Part shown: positions 7,658 to 45,114 of the stretch, piece by piece
Position numbering within the stretch: the first letter of the stretch is position 1
Layout: every line of letters starts with the position of its first letter
DNA from: Patescibacteria group bacterium
GTDB lineage: Bacteria; Patescibacteriota; Minisyncoccia; Portnoybacterales; UBA2143
Assembly: GCA_018819085.1 (NCBI GenBank)
Contig: JAHJQT010000032.1
Span: 1 to 45,114, forward strand
Length of the DNA: 45,114 bases
Direction of reading: 5' to 3'
Program-made: the position numbers and the translations under genes
Notes under the pieces: generated by a model
The model's database searches: none
What the model saw: only the letters and a program-made list of their open reading frames with translations
Told to the model about the DNA's origin: nothing

Positions 7658-8287
7658 TTACTTCACGATGATTTTTTTTGTCTCTACGCCAAAAATTTCT
7701 CTTAGATGACCATCAACAAGCGTATCGTAAGTATCACATTCTTTAACTAGCTCTTTATTAACTATGTTTGATTCAGATAAACTTAATAAACTGACGTTAC
7801 TACCAAAATCCCTTAAACGTTTACACAGAGGAATAAAATCAGAGTCATTAGTTAACAAAAATAACCTCTCTAATTTACCAGTTGCCGATAACTGCAATGC
7901 GTCACAACATAACTCAGTATCAACCCCTTTTTCACTTTTGCTACACCTATCACGATACTTACTAGGTACAGTCTTCAAAAATTCATCATAACCCTTTGAC
8001 CCCCGTAATTTTCCGCCACAATACTTAAAATAAACATCTCTTATTAATCCTGGTTCTTTAAAATCTGGCAATGACAGATACTCTTCAATACGTGGATCAC
8101 CTTTAGCAAAATAATAAACAGCTCTCTTATACTGTCCGTTATGCAAATCTCTTAAATTAAGTATAAAATGATGGATCAATTTCAAAGGATCTAATTTATG
8201 TTCTTTGAAATTTTCTCTCTTCTTCTGAAGAACATAAATTTGAGAGATTAAAGCAGAACCATCTATAAAAAAATAATTACTAATCAT
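7658..8287 (-). CDS. NYN-domain (LabA/PIN-like) putative ribonuclease
   Basis: Motifs FIDGSAL, KGVDTELCCD and LLTNDSDFIPL. Confidence 0.65.
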   Translation of the reverse strand: MISNYFFIDGSALISQIYVLQKKRENFKEHKLDPLKLIHHFILNLRDLHNGQYKRAVYYFAKGDPRIEEYLSLPDFKEPGLIRDVYFKYCGGKLRGSKGYDEFLKTVPSKYRDRCSKSEKGVDTELCCDALQLSATGKLERLFLLTNDSDFIPLCKRLRDFGSNVSLLSLSESNIVNKELVKECDTYDTLVDGHLREIFGVETKKIIVK

Positions 8288-8371: not shown

Positions 8372-9316
8372 TCAACTCTTTACTTTTCTAAGATACTTAC
8401 CAAAAACCTTATGAAAATTTTCTGCTGTTACTTGCAACCAAGCAAAATATTCGTCCCATTTATCAGTATCATTGATACTACCCTCTCTTGATAATTTAAT
8501 GCGACTGGCTTTTTTATTTTCCAATGGCATCCATTCTATTTTTTTTGTTCCTAACTCACTCTCTATTTGTTTTTTCTGTATTTCAAGTCCTCTGAAAATT
8601 TCTTTTTTTCTTGGAATATATATTTCACATGACATAACACCACCAAGACTATTAACAGTTAATGCTATATGATAATCAGAACTACCAAGACTAATATCGT
8701 GCCAATGTCGAGGTCTGGGACTCCTTAATTTTAAATTAGTCCCATTTTGTTTTGCAAATTCATTAAATTTATCCCAAAAATTAAGTTGTTCAACTTTAGT
8801 GTCAGTTAAATTTGATTTTCCTGAAGATTGTTTTATTGCTTTCGCCCAATCATTTGGTTTGGCAATAATTTGAAATTTAGGTGCAAAAGGTGAATCAGCT
8901 ATTTGCCATAATTCCATCTTAATAGCAAAAAAGTTTATTTCTTCATCCGTATGTTCATTAAGCCAGTTAATAGCTTGTTTGTGTTCATCTCTTACATCTT
9001 TAACTATCCAAATAATTATTTCTGCATCATATCCTGAAGCATAAGTTATTATCTTACCAAGATGATCGTGATCAGTCGCTTCTAATTGATTCTCAATGAT
9101 AATCTTTCTACCAGTATTTTCTTCTTCTGCTAATATATCAACACTAAATTTACCAACACTAGCTTCGGTTTGTATTAAAGTTAAATCAATGCCTATTTCA
9201 TCACTCAATAAAGATAAGTTTTCATCTTCAGATAACCAATTAGTAAAATCAGTAGCTTCGTGATTCCACGCTTTTCGTAAATCGATTTGTTTTATTTTAG
9301 ATAAATTTTGTGACAT
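8372..9316 (-). CDS. DUF4268-family protein, possible PD-(D/E)xK nuclease fold
   Basis: N-terminus WNHEATDFTNWL...VGKFSVDILAEE...IIENQLEATDHDHLGKIITYA is typical of DUF4268. Confidence 0.55.
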   Translation of the reverse strand: MSQNLSKIKQIDLRKAWNHEATDFTNWLSEDENLSLLSDEIGIDLTLIQTEASVGKFSVDILAEEENTGRKIIIENQLEATDHDHLGKIITYASGYDAEIIIWIVKDVRDEHKQAINWLNEHTDEEINFFAIKMELWQIADSPFAPKFQIIAKPNDWAKAIKQSSGKSNLTDTKVEQLNFWDKFNEFAKQNGTNLKLRSPRPRHWHDISLGSSDYHIALTVNSLGGVMSCEIYIPRKKEIFRGLEIQKKQIESELGTKKIEWMPLENKKASRIKLSREGSINDTDKWDEYFAWLQVTAENFHKVFGKYLRKVKS

Positions 9317-9491: not shown

Positions 9492-12383
9492 CTATGCTAA
9501 AATATCTAAATTCCTTAAGTTACTTTCAATAAGAGTAATCTCTTCTTGCATTTTATTATCTTTTTTATAATCTTTTTGAATTTTCTTATATGCATACATT
9601 ATTGTTGTATGATCGCGCTTAAAAATATTACCAATAACAGGAAAAGAACTTTTAAGATGTTTTCTAATTAGATACATTGAAATTTGCCGCGGATATGCAA
9701 ATTCTTTTTTTCTAGAAATACTTTTAATTTCATTTTCCTTAATACTGTAAAAATCTGCGACTCCCTCTATAATCTTATCAGTAGATACATCAAGAGATTT
9801 TTCAAAACGATCGATATAATCTATAATTTTTATATTTCTTTTGCCTTTTTTACCTTCAAATATAGATGATTCTTCTTTAGGAATATCGTTAATAGTAATT
9901 ATTTCATCATCTCCGTATAACTTCGGCAAAGCGCTATTTATTATTTGTCGGACTCTTTCTCGACTTATTTTATATTTAAGAGATATTTCTTCTAATGTAT
10001 GTTTTCGATTTTCGTTTATGCCAAACTTCATTTCAACTATTTCTTTAAGCCTACCCCCAAGCACATCTATACGAGATACTAAAACATTTGCGTCATTTGT
10101 TTCTATATTACGATTAATAATATTTATATAGTCTTGGTGTAATGGTTTGTCTACGAACATTTCATATATAATTGCTCCAATTTCTAATTTTTTCATTATT
10201 ATATGCCCTGAAATATCAGTATGCGCATCATCAGTTTTTTGTCCAAGATTACCATTATTATATGCCTCTGCTACTGAAAGATTAAGAAATTCATCTAAAA
10301 TCAATTCTGCAAGATATAACTGCATAATAATTGATTTTTCTACATCAGACATTTTTGGATCTTCTCCAAAATAAATTTTGTTAATTGGATTTTTTCTATT
10401 TATAATTATAAATCCTGCCTCTTCTCCGAATTGCGCTCGAGCTTTTTGAATTTGCTCTGGCATATCTCTGAATTTCCAACCACGAAAAATTCCGGCGTCT
10501 TTGCCTTGCGGTGGTATCCTATTTTTATCATGGACATAAATTTTCGCATTACATTGATAATTATTCGATATCGCGATGACATTACCATTTTCATTACTTT
10601 TTTGACCTATAAAACCAATTGGTATCATTGCATTATTAGATTTACTGATTTTTTCTTTAGGAACTTTTACTTTTTTATCTAATAATATAATCGATGAGTT
10701 ATCAGATTCTAAATTAATAACTTCAGCAGTTTTTACTTTTTCTAAATCAACAAACAAATATAGTTTACTTTTCCTATTAGTTACTACAGAAAGTTCATTT
10801 GGATAAAATTCTATACCATTTTGAGGATAGAACAAATCACTTTGTATCACAGATACGAAACAAACAGCTTGAGATTCTTCACAAGTAGCAGTTATCTTAC
10901 CAACTGCATTCAAGGTGTTGGATTTAATTTTTATATGTTTTGAAATTATGCCATCCCTATTCGCATCCTCTTTTTTAAGAATAATTGTATCCGGTGTAAC
11001 TGAAATTTGTTTTTCATTACAAAGTAGAAACACTTTTGCATTTTGAGAAAAATCATCGATATTTATTTTAAGCTGTAAATAATATTGTTTATCAACTGTT
11101 ATTTTTATATTTTCTCTAGCAAACATTAACTCATTAATTTTTCTTGAATCTGGATTATCAAATGTTCCACCACTTTTTTCGCCAACAAGATCGGAATATA
11201 TCTTATTTAATTTTTTAAATACTTCTGAATGTCGTTTTTTTGTTTCTTCTGATAAATCACTTGCATCTTCTTCAGAATTTTTAAATTCATCAAATATTGG
11301 ATACAATAAATCTTTAACTTTATTAGAAAAATATTTATAAAACAGTTGAGATTTATCAAAACCATTTCTAGTATCAGTTAATATTTCTTCAGGAATCTCC
11401 TCATTAAGTTTTTCGTCAATAATTTCACGTGCATTAGTTAATTTTATATAACCAAAAATATTATTAGCCCCTAAATTTTTTTCAAATCCAAAAAAATCTA
11501 AATCATATACTGAATTATCATAATTAGCATCGTAAACCAATATTTTATTTGCATTCTCGCCAATTTTTTGTACCAAATCAAACTTAGCTTTATATAAACA
11601 AATATCTATTTCAACTGGCTTGAATTCTTCATACGGTTTAAAATATAACTTTTTGTCTAAAATCTTAGAAACATCGTTTGAATATAATTTTTCTACAAAT
11701 TTATATTCTATTTTTTTAGACACAGGATTTTTTTTGTTTTCAGTTTCAATTAATGTAATATTTCTATCAGGATTACTGTTAATAAATCGAAGCATGTATG
11801 AATCCGAAAGTCCTCTAAAAAGATTTTGAAACTCTGGCAAGTTAATTTTTTTAAAAGAAGGAAGCTCGAATTCTATAACTGTCCCATTTTTTTTAATATT
11901 ATACTTTTGTCTATATTTTTTTAATTCCTTTTTACTTAATCTATTGTGAGAATAAATTTGATCATCTTCTTTATAATAAAACGAGCAAATATATAATTCA
12001 TCGTCTTTTATTGAATAAAGATTACTTGTTGAAGATGGATTTAAAAACAAAACATCAGTCAATCCCTGACCATAGAGACCTCTTCCATCATGTCCTTTCT
12101 TCGATCCACTTTTAATTGCGCCGTATTTCCCAAAATTTTCTTCTATATCTTTTTGATTCATACCTTCCGCATAATCGATAACTCGAATAACTCTAGTTCT
12201 TCTATCTATATATATTTCAATACTCTTAATATAATCTATATTTATACCTTTCTTTTCTAATCGATTATAACTTTCATCAGAATTAGTTATAAGTTCAGTA
12301 AAGATTTTGTATATATCTCGTAGCGCTTTACCATGTCTTCTACTGGCAAATCTTTTTGAATTTTTTATTATGTGTTCTGGCAT
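9492..12383 (-). CDS. Large multidomain protein: N-terminal GHKL (Bergerat-fold) ATPase, then sigma-70 region 4-like HTH, then a C-terminal DnaA domain IV-like DNA-binding domain
   Basis: GHKL motifs: N-box ELITNSDESY, G1 VIDYAEGM, G2 GRGLYGQGL. FGINENRKHTLEEISLKYKISRERVRQIINSALPKL resembles sigma-70 regions 4.1/4.2. PRQISMYLIRKHL...IGNIFKRDHTTIMYAYKKI resembles DnaA domain IV. Confidence 0.6.
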   Translation of the reverse strand: MPEHIIKNSKRFASRRHGKALRDIYKIFTELITNSDESYNRLEKKGINIDYIKSIEIYIDRRTRVIRVIDYAEGMNQKDIEENFGKYGAIKSGSKKGHDGRGLYGQGLTDVLFLNPSSTSNLYSIKDDELYICSFYYKEDDQIYSHNRLSKKELKKYRQKYNIKKNGTVIEFELPSFKKINLPEFQNLFRGLSDSYMLRFINSNPDRNITLIETENKKNPVSKKIEYKFVEKLYSNDVSKILDKKLYFKPYEEFKPVEIDICLYKAKFDLVQKIGENANKILVYDANYDNSVYDLDFFGFEKNLGANNIFGYIKLTNAREIIDEKLNEEIPEEILTDTRNGFDKSQLFYKYFSNKVKDLLYPIFDEFKNSEEDASDLSEETKKRHSEVFKKLNKIYSDLVGEKSGGTFDNPDSRKINELMFARENIKITVDKQYYLQLKINIDDFSQNAKVFLLCNEKQISVTPDTIILKKEDANRDGIISKHIKIKSNTLNAVGKITATCEESQAVCFVSVIQSDLFYPQNGIEFYPNELSVVTNRKSKLYLFVDLEKVKTAEVINLESDNSSIILLDKKVKVPKEKISKSNNAMIPIGFIGQKSNENGNVIAISNNYQCNAKIYVHDKNRIPPQGKDAGIFRGWKFRDMPEQIQKARAQFGEEAGFIIINRKNPINKIYFGEDPKMSDVEKSIIMQLYLAELILDEFLNLSVAEAYNNGNLGQKTDDAHTDISGHIIMKKLEIGAIIYEMFVDKPLHQDYINIINRNIETNDANVLVSRIDVLGGRLKEIVEMKFGINENRKHTLEEISLKYKISRERVRQIINSALPKLYGDDEIITINDIPKEESSIFEGKKGKRNIKIIDYIDRFEKSLDVSTDKIIEGVADFYSIKENEIKSISRKKEFAYPRQISMYLIRKHLKSSFPVIGNIFKRDHTTIMYAYKKIQKDYKKDNKMQEEITLIESNLRNLDILA

Positions 12384-12387
12384 AATT

Positions 12388-13023
12388 TTAAAACTTTAAT
12401 AATTCAATAATATAATTCATAAAAGACAAAGCTTCTGTATTTTTTGTATTTTTACAAATATCTTTTAATTTTAAAATGCGTTTCTTAATTACTTCCTTTC
12501 TTGTAAAGGACATAACTCCTAAAAAAGAGAATATTTCAAACTCATTTATGCTTTCTTTATTTTCTTGCCATTTCTTAAATAAATTCGAATTTATTATTTC
12601 GTCTACATCGCCCTCAATTGATTTTATTCTTTTAGATTCGTTCTTTTTAGCTAAAACTTTTTTTTGTAGATTTGGGTTATTCAACATTTTTTTTGTCTCT
12701 TTCGCTACTTCTTTTCCTAATGTTGTAATTGAAAAATTAGTTCTAATATTTCCAACAGCCCAATTTCTATCAGTTGGTCTTAAATGCAATCTTAGTAAAT
12801 TAGAGATTCTATATAAATCAGGATATTCTTTGAATGTAATTAATGAAAACCTCTTAGGAAAAAATTTAAACATCGCTATGCCAATATATTCAAAATACAA
12901 TGGTATTCTTTTTTCTTCTAAAAAATACATAGTAAAAATCGCCAATTTATCTTGCGTAATATTTTCATATTGGTTTTCTTGAAAAGGATTAAGTTCTTTT
13001 ACAAATTTTTTATAAGCATCCAT
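12388..13023 (-). CDS. Hypothetical protein (211 aa), operon partner of the GHKL fusion
   Basis: ATG ORF with a 4-nt gap to the downstream gene. Confidence 0.4.
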   Translation of the reverse strand: MDAYKKFVKELNPFQENQYENITQDKLAIFTMYFLEEKRIPLYFEYIGIAMFKFFPKRFSLITFKEYPDLYRISNLLRLHLRPTDRNWAVGNIRTNFSITTLGKEVAKETKKMLNNPNLQKKVLAKKNESKRIKSIEGDVDEIINSNLFKKWQENKESINEFEIFSFLGVMSFTRKEVIKKRILKLKDICKNTKNTEALSFMNYIIELLKF

Positions 13024-13024
13024 A

Positions 13025-13252
13025 TTATAATTTAAATTCCTTATTTTTAGGAAAATGAAACTTTGATTTAGTTTCTTTTACTTTACGCTCAATTTCTGAA
13101 AAAATTTTATTTATCTCTTCTTCTTTATAACTATAAGCACTTCTATTAGAGCAATTACCAAGAACTTTAATTCTTTTCAGAACTTCATTTGTCCGATAAG
13201 TTGCTAATTTTTTGAATCTTTCTCTTTTAATCTCTTGATTTTGTTTGGTCAT
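13025..13252 (-). CDS. Small hypothetical protein. The ORF could extend to 13303 (92 aa); the MTKQNQ start is preferred on promoter spacing.
   Basis: 1-nt gap to the next gene. TTGTAT-17-TTATAT lies upstream. Confidence 0.3.
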   Translation of the reverse strand: MTKQNQEIKRERFKKLATYRTNEVLKRIKVLGNCSNRSAYSYKEEEINKIFSEIERKVKETKSKFHFPKNKEFKL

Positions 13253-13584
13253 ATTTTTAATATGTATATAATAAATACTATCACTATAATACAAGGATAT
13301 CATATCCTTATATTATTTGTCAATACCTTAGCTGTAGATAAAAAATATAAATAAATTTCATATAAAAAATACAATTGATCCTATCTTTCACCTAGACATG
13401 ATGCACTTAGTCTATACTTGTCCGTATTAAGACGTTAATATATAGAGTAATAGAAACTATTAGAAATTGATTATTACATCGTACACGCACATTTAGAACG
13501 TTCTATATGAGGAGGGGGTGTCTTCTAGATTTCCATGGCAGTAACGTACAGACGTAAGTTATTAATAAATGTTATACTGAATCT

Positions 13585-14849: not shown

Positions 14850-15455
14850 ATGAGTGAAAAGCAAGGATGGATAAAATTATATAGAAAACTACTACATGAT
14901 CCAATTTTTACAAGCGACAAAGGACTAAAAATTTGGATCTGGTGTTTATTAAGAGCAAATCACAAAAATACTGAGATATTTTTAGGAAGACAAAGAATAA
15001 TACTTAAACAAGGACAATTTGTATTTGGACGTTACACAGCGAGTGAGGAGTTAAAAATATCACCATCAACAACTTGGTTCTGGATAAAAAAATTAAAGAA
15101 CGACGATTATATTGACATCAAACCAACTAATAAATTCAGTATTGTAACAATCAAAAAATGGAAAGAGTATCAAACATTATTAACAACAAATGAAAAACAA
15201 GTGAACACAGACAATAATGATAATAATGTAAATAATATTGATGAAGCTGCGCTTCAAGAAATTAATTATATGAAGAAGCAGCTTCTCAATATTGGAGTAA
15301 GACCTAAACTCGTAAATGAAATGAATAAACAAAAAGAGTTTTGGAGAGCAAAGAAAAACATTATTCGTAAATGTTTAATAAATAAAGAAATCGAAGATAA
15401 AGCAGCTTATATTGCTAAGATCTATTATTTCTGGAAAGAGAATGAAGCTAAATGA
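14850..15455 (+). CDS. Possible replication-initiator or replisome-organizer-like winged-helix protein
   Basis: N-terminal GWIKLYRKLLHDPIF...IWIWCLLRANH pattern resembles what I recall of plasmid/phage replication-initiator N-terminal regions. The C-terminus is basic. Confidence 0.3.
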   Translation: MSEKQGWIKLYRKLLHDPIFTSDKGLKIWIWCLLRANHKNTEIFLGRQRIILKQGQFVFGRYTASEELKISPSTTWFWIKKLKNDDYIDIKPTNKFSIVTIKKWKEYQTLLTTNEKQVNTDNNDNNVNNIDEAALQEINYMKKQLLNIGVRPKLVNEMNKQKEFWRAKKNIIRKCLINKEIEDKAAYIAKIYYFWKENEAK

Positions 15456-15664
15456 CAGGGGTTATAAACATTTGCATACTATCATACAATGCTCATGTCC
15501 TGCCTCTGAAAATTAAAAAAATGATTACAGTTGCAGAATTTAAAAAACTACATAATACAAAAACATTAGAATTAACTGATGAAGAAATAGAAGCAGTGAT
15601 TAATTTACTGTATCAATTAAGCGATCTATTATTTGAAATTTGGATCGAAGAAAAAAATAAATGA
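15452..15664 (+). CDS. Small hypothetical protein. An internal start MITVAEF at about 15521 is possible.
   Basis: Overlaps the neighbouring genes by 4 nt, so it may be translationally coupled. Confidence 0.3.
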   Translation: MTGVINICILSYNAHVLPLKIKKMITVAEFKKLHNTKTLELTDEEIEAVINLLYQLSDLLFEIWIEEKNK

Positions 15665-17199
15665 AATTAAACAGCGAATTACAAACAGGAATTATTTATT
15701 ATCGAGTTAGCACCGAAGATCAAGCTGAACATGGTGCTAGTTTAATGTACCAAAAAAGAAACTGTTCTGAATTTGCTGAAAAAAATAATATTAATGTCTT
15801 AAGACTATTTCATGACGATGGCGTCTCAGCAAAAACAACGAATAGAGCTGATTTGCAAGACATGCTCAAATACTGCAACAAAAACCATAAAAAGATTGAC
15901 TGCCTAATAGTCTATAAAATTGATCGACTCTCTAGAAATGTTAATGACTATACAAATATTCTGATCTTTTTAAATAAATTACAAATAAAACTAGTTTCTA
16001 CCACAGAATCAATAGATGATACGCCCACAGGTAAATTTATCGGCAACGTAATGGCTGCCTCTGCTCAATTTGATAATGACTTGAGAAGCGAGAGAGTTTC
16101 TTCTTGCATGATGGAGAGAGTAAGACAAGGACAATGGTGTTGGAAAGCTCCTCTTGGCTATTTAAATAGAGCAAACGAATATAGCCAAAAAATAGTTGTT
16201 CTAGATAAAGAAAAAAGCCGTTTCGTTAAACTAGCTTTTGAAAAATTCGCTACCGAACTTTATATTTTAGAAGACATTAGAAAATTAATTAATAAGAGAG
16301 GACTTAAAAACAATAGCGATAATGAAATTTCCTCTCAATTAATGCATAAAATTATAACTAATCCATTTTACTGTGGTGTGCTAAAAGTCAAAGGAGATTT
16401 ATACAAAGGAAAACATGAAAAAATAATTAGTGAAGAAACTTTTGATAAGTGCCAATCATTATTAAAAAGAAGCAATAGAGGAGAAAATATCTCAAGAAGA
16501 AGAACTAATGTTGATTTTCCTCTAAGAAATTTTGCAATCTGCTCTGTTTGTGAGCGTCCATTGACTGCTGCTTTCTCAACAGGTCATCGAGGTGGTAAAT
16601 ATCCATATTATCGTTGCTATAATAAATATTGTTCAGCTAAAAAATCTATTAATCAACAAAGTGTTGAAAATGACTTTTTAGAACTTTTAAAACAAATCAC
16701 TCCCAAGAGAGAATATTTAGATATATTTAAACCAATTGTAATTGATGTTTGGAACAAAAATTATAATGATCTTAATAAACGACGAAATGATATAATGAAA
16801 AAAATTGAGAAATTAAATAAAGAAAAAGAAAAATTAATTGATATGAAAAAGAAAGAATTGTTACCTGATGAAGATTTTAAAGAAGCATTCGAAGAAATAA
16901 AAGAGAAAATACGAAAAGAGATAATCTTAAGCGAAACCAGAATTGAACAATTCAATCCAACTGAAGCGATTAACTATGTATTCAACTTTATTACAAATAT
17001 ACCTGAGTTTTGGAAGAAAGCTGATTGCCAACAAAAAATTCGTTTACAGAGTTTAATTTTCACTGAAAAGCCCATTTATACCTATCCAAAGTTTGGAACC
17101 CCCAAAATTTGTTTAATCTTACAGCAAAAAACGCCTATCGCGAACGATAGGCATCTCATGGTAGCCCTACGGGGAGTCGAACCCCGGTTGCCAGATTGA
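15661..17199 (+). CDS. Large serine recombinase (integrase)
   Basis: Resolvase N-terminal domain with the catalytic Ser in YYRVSTEDQ, a recombinase domain, a zinc ribbon (CSVCERP...YYRC) and a coiled coil. The 3' end reads into tRNA-Glu. Confidence 0.8.
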   Translation: MKLNSELQTGIIYYRVSTEDQAEHGASLMYQKRNCSEFAEKNNINVLRLFHDDGVSAKTTNRADLQDMLKYCNKNHKKIDCLIVYKIDRLSRNVNDYTNILIFLNKLQIKLVSTTESIDDTPTGKFIGNVMAASAQFDNDLRSERVSSCMMERVRQGQWCWKAPLGYLNRANEYSQKIVVLDKEKSRFVKLAFEKFATELYILEDIRKLINKRGLKNNSDNEISSQLMHKIITNPFYCGVLKVKGDLYKGKHEKIISEETFDKCQSLLKRSNRGENISRRRTNVDFPLRNFAICSVCERPLTAAFSTGHRGGKYPYYRCYNKYCSAKKSINQQSVENDFLELLKQITPKREYLDIFKPIVIDVWNKNYNDLNKRRNDIMKKIEKLNKEKEKLIDMKKKELLPDEDFKEAFEEIKEKIRKEIILSETRIEQFNPTEAINYVFNFITNIPEFWKKADCQQKIRLQSLIFTEKPIYTYPKFGTPKICLILQQKTPIANDRHLMVALRGVEPRLPD

Positions 17200-17233
17200 A
17201 AATCTGACGTCCTAACCATTAGACGATAGGGCC
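17159..17233 (-). tRNA. tRNA-Glu, anticodon UUC, encoded CCA
   Basis: Manual fold: acceptor ggcccta/tagggct, anticodon stem tcaga/tctgg, loop ttTTCaa, T-loop ttcgact. Confidence 0.7.
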
Positions 17234-24952: not shown

Positions 24953-24964
24953 AATATTTAATAG

Positions 24965-25048
24965 TGCCTTGGGAGAGATTCGAACTCTCAATCCCTTGCG
25001 GGAACTTGGTCCTAAGCCAAGCACGTATTCCAGTTCCGCCACCAAGGC
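24965..25048 (-). tRNA. tRNA-Leu, anticodon UAG, long variable arm, no encoded CCA
   Basis: Manual fold: acceptor gccttgg/ccaaggc, anticodon stem cttgg/ccaag, loop ctTAGga, T-loop ttcgaat. Confidence 0.7.
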
Positions 25049-37440: not shown

Positions 37441-37512
37441 GGGCGTATAGCTCAATGGCGGAGCAGGGCTCTTATAAGGCCAAGGTTCCTGGTTCGAATC
37501 CAGGTACGCCCA
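37441..37512 (+). tRNA. tRNA with apparent anticodon UAU (Ile). There is a G-A mismatch at the top of the anticodon stem and no encoded CCA.
   Basis: Manual fold: acceptor gggcgta/tacgccc, D-stem gctc/gagc, anticodon loop ctTATaa, T-arm cctgg-ttcgaat-ccagg. Confidence 0.5.
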
Positions 37513-37532
37513 CATAATAATATTTTATTTAC

Positions 37533-37607
37533 GGGCTCATAGCTCAGTGGTAGAGTGCGTCGTTGACATCGACGAGGTCATAGGTTCAATCCCTATTGAG
37601 CCCACCA
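37533..37607 (+). tRNA. tRNA-Val, anticodon GAC, encoded CCA
   Basis: Manual fold: acceptor gggctca/tgagccc, anticodon stem cgtcg/cgacg, loop ttGACat. Confidence 0.7.
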
Positions 37608-38961: not shown

Positions 38962-39037
38962 GGGCCGATAGCTCATCTGGTAGAGCGCCGCACTTGCACT
39001 GCGGAGGCGGCAGGTTCGAGTCCTGTTCGGTCCACCA
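38962..39037 (+). tRNA. tRNA-Ala, anticodon UGC, encoded CCA
   Basis: Manual fold: acceptor gggccga/tcggtcc, anticodon stem ccgca/tgcgg, loop ctTGCac. Confidence 0.7.
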
Positions 39038-40147: not shown

Positions 40148-40231
40148 GCCCAGGTGGCGAAATTGGTAGACGCGCAAGCTTGAGGGGCTTGTGTCTTTCG
40201 AGATGTGCGGGTTCGACTCCCGCCCTGGGCA
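40148..40231 (+). tRNA. tRNA-Leu, anticodon GAG, long variable arm, no encoded CCA
   Basis: Manual fold: acceptor gcccagg/cctgggc, anticodon stem caagc/gcttg, loop ttGAGgg, T-loop ttcgact. Confidence 0.65.
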
Positions 40232-40271
40232 CAATTTGACATAATTGTTTATAAAATATAAGATTAGAGTA

Positions 40272-44549: not shown

Positions 44550-44622
44550 GGGCGGTTAACTCAGTGGCCAGAGTATCTCGTTTACATCGAGAGAGTCAGA
44601 GGTTCAAATCCTCTACCGCCCA
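44550..44622 (+). tRNA. tRNA-Val, anticodon UAC, no encoded CCA
   Basis: Manual fold: acceptor gggcggt/accgccc, anticodon stem tctcg/cgaga, loop ttTACat, T-loop ttcaaat. Confidence 0.65.
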
Positions 44623-44698
44623 CATACTTTTTATCCAAAACTTGTTTTGGTAATAAAAATTATGCCCTGAGCGAAGTCGAAGGACCAAACACCGTATA

Positions 44699-44783
44699 TG
44701 GTGGGATGTGCCGAATTGGCAAGGCACTGGTTTCGAAAACCAGCGGGCTTTAAGCCCATGCGAGTTCGAATCTCGCTCCCACC
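44699..44783 (+). tRNA. tRNA-Ser, anticodon CGA, long variable arm, no encoded CCA
   Basis: Manual fold: acceptor ggtggga/tcccacc, anticodon stem ctggt/accag, loop ttCGAaa, variable stem gggct/agccc, T-loop ttcgaat. Confidence 0.6.
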
Positions 44784-45114
44784 GCAAGAAAAAATAAACG
44801 AGGTTCGCCCCGCCACCGCTCGCTAACGCTCGCCACCCCGCAAAAAAGTTTTCTTCGCATTTTTTATTTTGCGCGCGTCAGATTTTTTTTTCTAAATTGA
44901 AAACGGAAAAAGGAATCCGACACTTGCGACAATTCAAAAATTAACCGAAACTCTTGGAATTTCGGCTGATGAATTATTGAAATAAACTATTTAAGTTATA
45001 TATTATGAACAAAAAATTTATAATCAAAAATGTTGCCAACTTTAGAGATAATTATTTAGCAGATTATATAAATCAATATATAAAAAATGATAATTTTTAT
45101 AACCTTGGATGGGG

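Follow-up and report, generated by a model that had tools for sequence, protein, structure and literature searches.

What use might a bacterium have for a single polypeptide that joins an ATP-binding domain to a DNA-reading segment of the primary sigma factor and to another of the replication initiator DnaA? The question is raised by gene C, the last gene of a three-gene operon (A-B-C) on contig JAHJQT010000032.1 (GenBank assembly GCA_018819085.1) of a Patescibacteria group bacterium; the whole stretch of 45,114 nucleotides (nt) is referred to here as the window. We find that A-B-C is a conserved, horizontally mobile three-gene module with C as its large subunit, and that C consists of a conserved core of ~745 amino acids (aa) and an acquired C-terminal module of ~220 residues. 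What is new is an uncharacterised paraMORC-like three-gene family together with an undescribed fusion to housekeeping DNA readers. As to function, the reading that we favour, tentatively and with a little less than even confidence, is that of a paraMORC-like conflict system in which an ATP-driven clamp would be aimed by the C-terminal tail at sequences resembling -35 hexamers and DnaA boxes. For the function of this architecture, the sequence context gives moderate support to a setting in defence.

Gene C and its domains

The initial annotation had described a 963-aa reading frame, which is present exactly as it said, and had called three domains within it, namely a GHKL ATPase, a sigma-70 region 4 (sigma4) and a domain IV of DnaA (DnaA-IV). 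The parts of the gene are:

9492..12383, minus strand: gene C, an uninterrupted open reading frame (ORF) of 963 aa
11769..12383, minus strand: residues 1-205, GHKL (Bergerat-fold) ATP-binding domain, from invariant motif residues and fold matches
11349..11768, minus strand: residues 206-345, S5-fold transducer with the loop PEEILTDTR(D/N)GF
11130..11348, minus strand: residues 346-418, long helical hairpin and low-confidence linker, from the secondary structure of the AlphaFold2 (AF2) model
10398..11129, minus strand: residues 419-662, all-beta region with Ig-like sandwich domains
10098..10397, minus strand: residues 663-762, helical bundle ending the conserved core, then the tail junction
9915..10097, minus strand: residues 763-823, sigma-70 region 4 with the recognition helix SRERVRQI, from Pfam PF04545 and PDB sequence matches
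9819..9914, minus strand: residues 824-855, flexible linker between the two heads, from model confidence (predicted local distance difference test, pLDDT) and variability among homologs
9492..9818, minus strand: residues 856-963 and the stop codon, DnaA domain IV

The three calls were borne out. Pfam places Sigma70_r4 (PF04545) at residues 772-822 (E 9e-10; 38.4 bits, cut-off 24.1) and Bac_DnaA_C at residues 869-935 (E 2.7e-25; 88.6 bits, cut-off 31.5), so that the profile searches originally suggested are significant for both segments; HATPase_c_3 falls slightly below its cut-off and the ATP motifs are invariant. NCBIfam and PDB sequence searches with C returned DnaA and primary sigma segments at the C-terminus and nothing else, the PDB matches of the sigma4 segment being region 4 of SigA and RpoD.

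The GHKL domain, whose boundary at residue 205 was taken from the secondary structure of the AF2 model, carries Mg-ATP motifs I-IV of its superfamily (ExxxN..D, DxGxG, GxxGxG and GT). Residues E30, N34, D36, D70, A72, G74, G105, G107 and G167 are invariant in 31 family sequences and T168 is kept in at least 90% of them; in D70-x-A72-x-G74 an Ala stands in place of the first Gly throughout the core family. Judged from these residues the ATP-binding site of C is intact. The Bergerat fold is followed by an S5-fold transducer, the arrangement of the MutL/Hsp90/topoisomerase/MORC subset of the superfamily, and in the S5 loop lies R339, invariant in the family, which is a candidate gamma-phosphate sensor.

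A structural model, which had been proposed as a check, agrees with the domain calls: the fold of C in the AF2 model is nearest to SMCHD1 and MORC and its C-terminus consists of helix-turn-helix (HTH) domains. The ~650 aa between ATPase and tail, at first set down as unrecognisable, resolve into the S5 transducer, the helical hairpin (helices 347-368 and 379-400, with residues 402-413 at pLDDT <50), the Ig-like beta-sandwiches and the helical bundle.

A conserved core with an added tail

Thirteen further proteins, 34-75% identical to C, carry the full architecture and bring the long forms to 14. Another 17 relatives are ~730 aa long and end at about residue 745 of the query, just ahead of sigma4. 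A profile of the core retrieved 1,296 cluster representatives at E<=1e-3 (483 at E<=1e-30), and since nearly all of these are 720-770 aa in length, with a handful of long ones, we regard C as a member of a large uncharacterised family to which a module has been added. The initial view of C as a one-off chimera is thereby replaced by that of a widespread family of ~730-aa GHKL and S5 proteins with A and B as partners.

The source of the window is a metagenome-assembled genome (MAG), and in two related loci (L012 and L013, described below) the HTH pair is a separate gene; one might therefore ask whether a chimeric assembly or an overlooked frameshift has joined separate genes, a concern also raised with the initial annotation. 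We consider the probability of this close to nil. In sixteen non-redundant loci from independent samples, at 34-75% identity, the ORF is unbroken and its domains follow one another in the same order, and the identical protein is recorded on three contigs from several sources, which effectively refutes an artefact. The separate protein of L012 has the reverse domain order and accompanies a diverged paralog; it is therefore a different arrangement and offers no evidence of a frameshift here.

C was also considered, and rejected, as a sigma factor or a DnaA paralog. In the Pfam search only Sigma70_r4 was found and region 2 was not; the RpoD model NF004208 gives 44 bits against a cut-off of 555, and the DnaA model TIGR00362 gives 97 bits against 343.9, over model positions 343-436 only. 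The tail resembles its housekeeping counterparts in scoring above the Pfam thresholds and in keeping the recognition helix and contact residues. Unlike DnaA and sigma70, however, C lacks DnaA domains I-III as well as sigma regions 1-3, and therefore cannot serve as initiator or sigma factor.

The two heads of the tail

The motif (T/S)RER(I/V)RQ in the sigma4.2 helix is invariant in 14 of 14 long forms, and is likewise kept in the sigma4 versions of loci L019, L047 and L012. The motif is identical to sigma70 T583-Q589 of Escherichia coli, where the -35 contacts lie (R584, E585, R586, R588 and Q589), as reportedly described by Campbell et al. 2002; SRERVRQI of C aligns with E. coli TRERIRQI. With PF04545 above its cut-off and these residues kept, the segment is a sigma-70 region 4 domain. 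The 'RFG' segment of region 4.1 is variable across the sigma4 configurations.

The last segment of C belongs to DnaA domain IV (Bac_DnaA_C). All 14 long forms keep the equivalents of E. coli DnaA R399 and D433-H434-T435 unchanged; the equivalent of P423 is conserved, and that of H439 is Tyr or His (Tyr in most members). The domain is marked by a basic-loop Arg and the DnaA signature helix (R399, P423, D433, H434 and T435, in the numbering reportedly that of Fujikawa et al. 2003). The DnaA-IV model of C superposes on DNA-bound DnaA-IV structures at 1.2-1.3 A. Between the heads the linker is partly disordered (residues 838-852 have pLDDT <50 in the AF2 model) and differs in length and sequence among homologs. 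The simplest reading of the conserved residues and the modelled fold is that both heads would still bind DNA, one at -35-like and the other at DnaA-box-like sequences.

It may be added that residues ~858-950 of C match phrog_16091 (E 1.3e-6), a phage family with a 131-position profile and no function assigned; stand-alone DnaA-IV-like proteins thus exist in phages.

Several relatives differ from C at the tail. In L019, a Saccharibacteria MAG, C is fused to sigma4 alone, and in L047 a short C is followed by a separate 586-aa protein with sigma4. Protein P0042 (943 aa) has a polymorphic-toxin-type DSP-PTPase in the tail position (residues 785-912; PF22785, E 4e-20). L012 and L013 contain a sister system (L012 4081-7993) with homologs of gene A (hhalign E 1e-31) and gene B (E 1e-9) and a diverged 690-aa GHKL paralog, whose motifs are EWLKNSVDA, DFVGM and GGHGNGG and of which only the beta domain aligns to the profile of C. 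In the product of an overlapping 330-aa gene downstream (P0202) DnaA_C precedes Sigma70_r4, opposite to their order in the fusion, and in L012 a serine recombinase and a C5 DNA methylase flank the system.

In a neighbour-joining tree of the core only, calculated without support values, the fused forms make two groups in one half of the tree with short forms between them, and L047 and P0042 lie elsewhere. The association with the HTH domains has therefore arisen or been rearranged more than once, which favours a functional link over accident.

Outside the family the two heads come closest to fragments of DnaA (52-57% identity) and to primary sigma factors (45-54%), so that the tail domains stand as near to the housekeeping proteins as do orthologs from other phyla. 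Such closeness would suit an integrated decoy, in which sigma4 and DnaA-IV are bait copies of the host proteins, the MORC-like ATPase is an immune receptor, and invader proteins (AsiA-like anti-sigmas, DnaA attackers) bind the tail and switch on the ATPase. A tail that is optional on a core working without it is likewise what one would expect of a sensor add-on, and P0196, an unrelated 258-aa fragment, joins the C-terminal domain (CTD) of the RNA polymerase (RNAP) alpha subunit to DnaA_C and sigma4; modifiers encoded by phages classically target the alpha-CTD and sigma region 4. We nevertheless hold a decoy to be quite unlikely. In the four sigma4 configurations it is the DNA-recognition helix that is invariant, whereas the beta-flap/AsiA surface (4.1 'RFG') varies, even if residues matching sigma70 F563 and I565, which contact the beta-flap and AsiA, are retained in the close clade. 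The phosphatase that takes the tail position in P0042 looks like an effector and not like bait, and we know of no phage inhibitors of DnaA domain IV.

Fusions of sigma4 and DnaA-IV occur in Patescibacterial records only, with the exception of one 3.7-kb contig (L014, CAZSIU010000102.1), which encodes a long form 63% identical to C and is binned to the MAG of a Methanosarcinales archaeon. Most likely this is a mis-binned Patescibacterial contig. A transfer between a Patescibacterium and an archaeal partner is conceivable, some Patescibacteria being described as parasites of methanogenic archaea.

The partner genes

Upstream of C the operon contains two smaller genes:

13025..13252, minus strand: gene A, a 75-aa basic, predicted helical protein, from an alignment of homologs
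12388..13023, minus strand: gene B, 211 aa, N-terminal winged helix and helical C-terminal half

The gaps are 1 nt between A and B and 4 nt between B and C, and the description of a tight three-gene operon was correct. The length of its first gene had been left at 75-92 aa, of which only the lower figure stands. Homologs of gene A align across long and short loci (42-71% identity) and start at the internal ATG of the window (13252), and the upstream ATG (13303) lies inside the promoter and operator described below; gene A is therefore 75 aa and the 92-aa reading an over-extension.

Whether the partners stay next to C, as the initial annotation had asked, was examined in 129 non-redundant loci with enough upstream sequence (16 long-form, 113 other). 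A and B are present in 16/16 long-form loci. Among the other forms B is adjacent in 83/113, A is detectable in 35/113, and in 5/113 A abuts C without B. In the family as a whole the parts are thus A, a basic helical protein of ~72 aa, B, a winged-helix protein of ~210 aa, and C, a paraMORC-like GHKL and S5 ATPase. Neither A nor B has a significant match in Pfam, NCBIfam, PADLOC, PHROGs or PDB sequences. No conserved fourth gene was found 3' of C in the loci surveyed; a candidate of this kind was rejected on the heterogeneity of the downstream genes, and the unit is therefore A-B-C.

The promoter region of the operon

The 332-bp intergenic region upstream of the operon contains three signals:

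13294..13323, minus strand: operon promoter TTGACA, 18-nt spacer, TG-TATCCT, with 10/12 matches and the TG extension
13333..13341, minus strand: DnaA-box-like 9-mer TTATCTACA, which differs from TTATCCACA at one position and is separated by 9 nt from the -35 hexamer downstream of it
13293..13309, minus strand: putative operator, the palindrome AAGGATATGATATCCTT, which overlaps spacer and -10 hexamer

No other promoter-like site on the minus strand here matches as well as this promoter, whose -35 hexamer is at 13318-13323, and homologous promoters lie upstream of gene A in related loci. A perfect DnaA box TTATCCACA occurs in the same arrangement in L001, L015 and the short-form locus L119.

A composite of both sites might be read by the two heads of the tail, in the promoter of the operon or in others of its island, so that the tail would act as a transcription factor and merely set the expression of the system. 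In the window, in L001 (67% identical protein) and in L015 (37%) a DnaA box stands 9-10 nt before the -35 hexamer 5' of gene A, the extended TTATCCACAGG being preserved while the flanks diverge, and the flexible linker of ~30 aa could bridge the 9-10 bp between the sites. Two of the 17 near-consensus DnaA boxes in the window fall within the upstream intergenic region, although overall there is no DnaA-box enrichment in the window (17 found, 13.8 expected). These observations suggest that in some A-B-C operons the promoter is coupled to DnaA, or else to the tail. The composite site is, however, present in only 3/18 non-redundant long-form promoters (4/18 allowing two mismatches) and is therefore a cis-element confined to some of the operons. 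It is also found in 1/78 short-form promoters, that of the tail-less L119, and approximately in the tail-less L054, where host DnaA is the obvious reader, and regulation of expression would leave unexplained both the phosphatase alternative and the split gene of the sister system. We have accordingly downgraded the composite site as a general role of the tail, and an autoregulatory tail is in our judgement unlikely.

The widely conserved cis-element is a different one, the palindrome. Its centre, between the -35 and -10 hexamers, is the ATG at 13303. The palindrome AAGGATAT-N-ATATCCTT is shared by many Patescibacterial loci, being near-identical in L102, L107, L103 and L054 and occurring as a variant in L018, L105 and L101; elsewhere in the family the palindromes differ and have TTGACA at their centre (L038, L016, L105). 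It is a probable operator for a dimeric repressor, and the winged helix of gene B makes its product a candidate operator-binding protein.

Distribution and gene neighbourhoods of the family

The core family is rare and patchy, being found in 247 of 185,579 species genomes. It spans Patescibacteria, Chloroflexota, Acidobacteriota, Bacillota/Mollicutes, Aminicenantes, Bathyarchaeia and others. A phage- or plasmid-borne system was considered and rejected: 2.9 million viral contigs (IMG/VR) yielded one distant match (23% identity), and there was none in INPHARED (50,697 phages) or PLSDB (72,556 plasmids).

Several loci lie beside genes of known defence systems. The neighbours include type I/IIG restriction-modification (R-M) and a Shedu-like gene in L001, methylases, RE_EcoO109I and DrmE (DISARM) in L009, Mrr and BglII R-M in L010, a pPIWI-associated nuclease in L037 and, in L006, a weak HEPN/AbiU2-like gene (E 1.8e-5, under the Pfam cut-off). 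When the 125 flanking ORFs nearest to the module in 80 species-genome loci are counted by family, the type II N6/N4 DNA methylase comes first (8/125). Such a methylase abuts the B-C module in L024, L026, L030, L036, L022, L021, L025 and L071, which belong to several phyla, and is often convergent with it, the 3' ends overlapping. Since these counts have no matched background set, we take the enrichment of methylase and defence neighbours as suggestive only.

Comparison with known systems

By its modelled fold C falls within the MORC/paraMORC radiation. In their 2008 paper (PMC2292703) Iyer et al. described paraMORC proteins as GHKL and S5 modules with family-specific C-terminal extensions in R-M contexts, the MORC and paraMORC extensions being typically nucleases or TIR domains, and proposed that these proteins are ATP-driven dimerising engines which remodel DNA and partner proteins. 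C resembles the prokaryotic members of PMC2292703 in its N-terminal GHKL domain with all ATP motifs, followed by S5 and a C-terminal extension peculiar to the family, and in being rare, patchy, laterally mobile and, in several loci, placed near DNA methylases and R-M genes. It differs in that its partners are a ~72-aa protein and a winged-helix protein in place of a conserved superfamily II (SFII) helicase or nuclease, in the Ig-like beta-sandwich domains after S5, and in an extension which is a housekeeping-derived pair of DNA readers and not a nuclease or TIR domain. C is not a true MORC, since the S5 motif GhXhhpXXRhl is not conserved in the family. The corresponding region of the query reads G311-YIKLTNA-R319-EI (family consensus IFGYxKLxNxxxII), where only G311 is conserved and R319 varies.

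The ATPase modules of SMCHD1 and MORC2/3 are only 12-18% identical in sequence to that of C. Unlike these proteins C has no CW, hinge or coiled-coil domain and is encoded in a bacterial operon. By analogy with SMCHD1 and MORC, C may have a silencing function.

Two defence systems deserve comparison. Mza (mzaABCDE) likewise includes a sigma-70-like region 4 HTH and also uses a MutL-type GHKL protein, but MzaA is a separate sigma-like protein and not a GHKL fusion. MzaA is the only PADLOC match of the 963-aa protein and covers the ~55-residue sigma4 segment alone (28 bits in PADLOC, and 35 bits in NCBIfam, where the cut-off is 800); no matches to MzaB-E were found with PADLOC among the window neighbours scanned. 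The match being confined to sigma4, membership in Mza was rejected. VcSduA of Shedu type I-D (PMC12137116) has an N-terminal GHKL ATPase and a C-terminal DUF4263 nuclease, and its ATPase and clamp-like middle domain are proposed to control the C-terminal module, as might be the case in C. Here, however, the C-terminal module consists of HTH domains predicted to bind DNA and not to cut it, and A-B-C needs two extra conserved genes. Pfam gave no match of C to DUF4263/SduA_C or PD-(D/E)xK, which sets it apart from Shedu type I-D.

The initial annotation did not recognise the architecture, and neither did the collections that we searched: there is no model for it in Pfam, NCBIfam or PADLOC, and A, B and ten core-family members have no match in PADLOC-DB v2.0.0. 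A full-text literature search returned no paper naming both Bac_DnaA_C and HATPase_c_3, and none pairing sigma-70 region 4 or DnaA domain IV with GHKL ATPases or anti-phage defence.

Proposed function

Three roles had been put forward at the outset, namely a defence sensor or effector, a hijacker of replication or transcription serving a mobile element, and an origin-sequestering regulator. Defence or conflict would fit best, and the other two are less likely, because R-M, Shedu, Mrr, DISARM and methylase genes are neighbours, because P0042 has a toxin-type phosphatase at the tail position, and because the family is nearly absent from phage collections. In favour of a conflict system are also the PDC-S11 gene next to the operon in the window, the rare and patchy distribution of the family and the paraMORC framework of PMC2292703.

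In the conflict system that we envisage, C would dimerise on ATP and clamp or remodel DNA, by analogy with the ATPase domains of MORC, SMCHD1, MutL and topoisomerases. The tail would supply sequence-specific loading sites, -35-like TTGACA hexamers and DnaA-box-like 9-mers, which are hallmarks of promoters and origins common to plasmids, phages and the chromosome. Clamping would block initiation of transcription, replication or both on the targeted DNA, and the outcome might be a silenced invader or an arrested infected cell. B would likely be a DNA-binding adaptor or an autorepressor at the palindromic operator, and A a small regulatory subunit.

A number of points weigh against this proposal. 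The match to HATPase_c_3 (residues 53-137, E 1e-4) reaches 22.6 bits where the cut-off is 25. That the tail binds DNA is a prediction from its conserved residues and its fold; the RNAP beta-flap and anti-sigma factors are further partners of sigma region 4, whose ligand here therefore need not be DNA. The -35 and DnaA-box motifs do not tell self from non-self. A, B and the core of C showed neither a nuclease nor any other obvious effector, which leaves unexplained how a short-form system would harm its target. Most immediate neighbours are heterogeneous and the neighbourhood counts lack a matched background, and the nearest-neighbour survey found no conservation of the SFII helicases and nucleases of described MORC and paraMORC operons.

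The island and other features of the window

The window is chromosomal, with genes for RecG, TsaD, LeuRS, GyrA and FtsH, and the operon lies in an AT-rich island of ~14 kb between RecG and a tRNA-Glu. Besides A-B-C the features of the island are:

7658-8287, minus strand: NYN-domain protein (Pfam NYN)
8372-9316, minus strand: full-length PDC-S11/DUF4268 candidate defence protein (PADLOC PDC-S11, E 4e-124; Pfam DUF4268)
14850-15455, plus strand: DnaD-like helicase loader (PHROG, E 3e-26)
Between the helicase loader and the recombinase, plus strand: 70-aa ORF
15661-17199, plus strand: large serine recombinase, its 3' end overlapping tRNA-Glu
17159-17233, minus strand: tRNA-Glu, right end of the island

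The accessory block proposed at the outset is thus real, but its two supposed bounds, tRNA-Glu and recombinase, are both at the right end, the left flank being RecG. The recombinase ORF extends 41 nt into the oppositely oriented tRNA-Glu gene; direct repeats of this tRNA that might be attachment sites were looked for and not found. The island, an integrative element, includes a replication module. The PDC-S11 and NYN genes lie directly downstream of the operon, each with its own promoter-like signal; a separate promoter-like site lies at 9392-9364.

Given this setting A-B-C might serve the element itself, in origin recognition, copy control or gene silencing, and have no part in defence. The operon diverges from the helicase loader and serine recombinase module, DnaA-box-like sites lie between the two, no initiator gene was recognised in the island, and serine recombinases also occur within ~3 kb in L006-L008 and L012. 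Across the family, however, recombinases and replication genes are not recurrent nearest neighbours, many loci are in chromosomal R-M neighbourhoods without mobility genes in the fetched flanks, and PLSDB and INPHARED, as said above, gave no match. GHKL and S5 proteins are not, to our knowledge, replication initiators. A service to the element is in our view distinctly improbable.

Two pairs of direct repeats, 84% identical, are present in the window: 5338-5412/6636-6710 (75 nt) and 7523-7579/8299-8355 (57 nt). Both are intergenic, 5' of successive minus-strand cargo genes, and resemble duplicated promoter or leader segments. Nine tRNA genes occur in the 45-kb window of this Patescibacterium, whose genome is small (at 1008-1083, 17159-17233, 24964-25048, 37441-37607, 38962-39037, 40148-40232 and 44550-44785), several of them beside accessory-looking segments.

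Biological significance

A-B-C is a compact module with hundreds of divergent members, and since neither Pfam nor NCBIfam nor PADLOC has a model for it, the module is a candidate conflict system as yet unexplored. In one Patescibacterial branch the ATPase is fused to two of the best-understood sequence-specific DNA readers of bacteria with their contact residues intact, from which it follows as a direct prediction that the clamp would act at -35 hexamers and DnaA boxes. Should the clamp silence promoters or origins, bacteria would have a counterpart to MORC and SMCHD1 silencing; if instead the tail is bait, there would be parallels in the integrated decoys of plant NLRs and, among mammals, in the effector-triggered MORC3 pathway. 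The defence repertoire of Patescibacteria is little characterised, and either way housekeeping DNA-recognition domains have been recruited into accessory systems in these bacteria.

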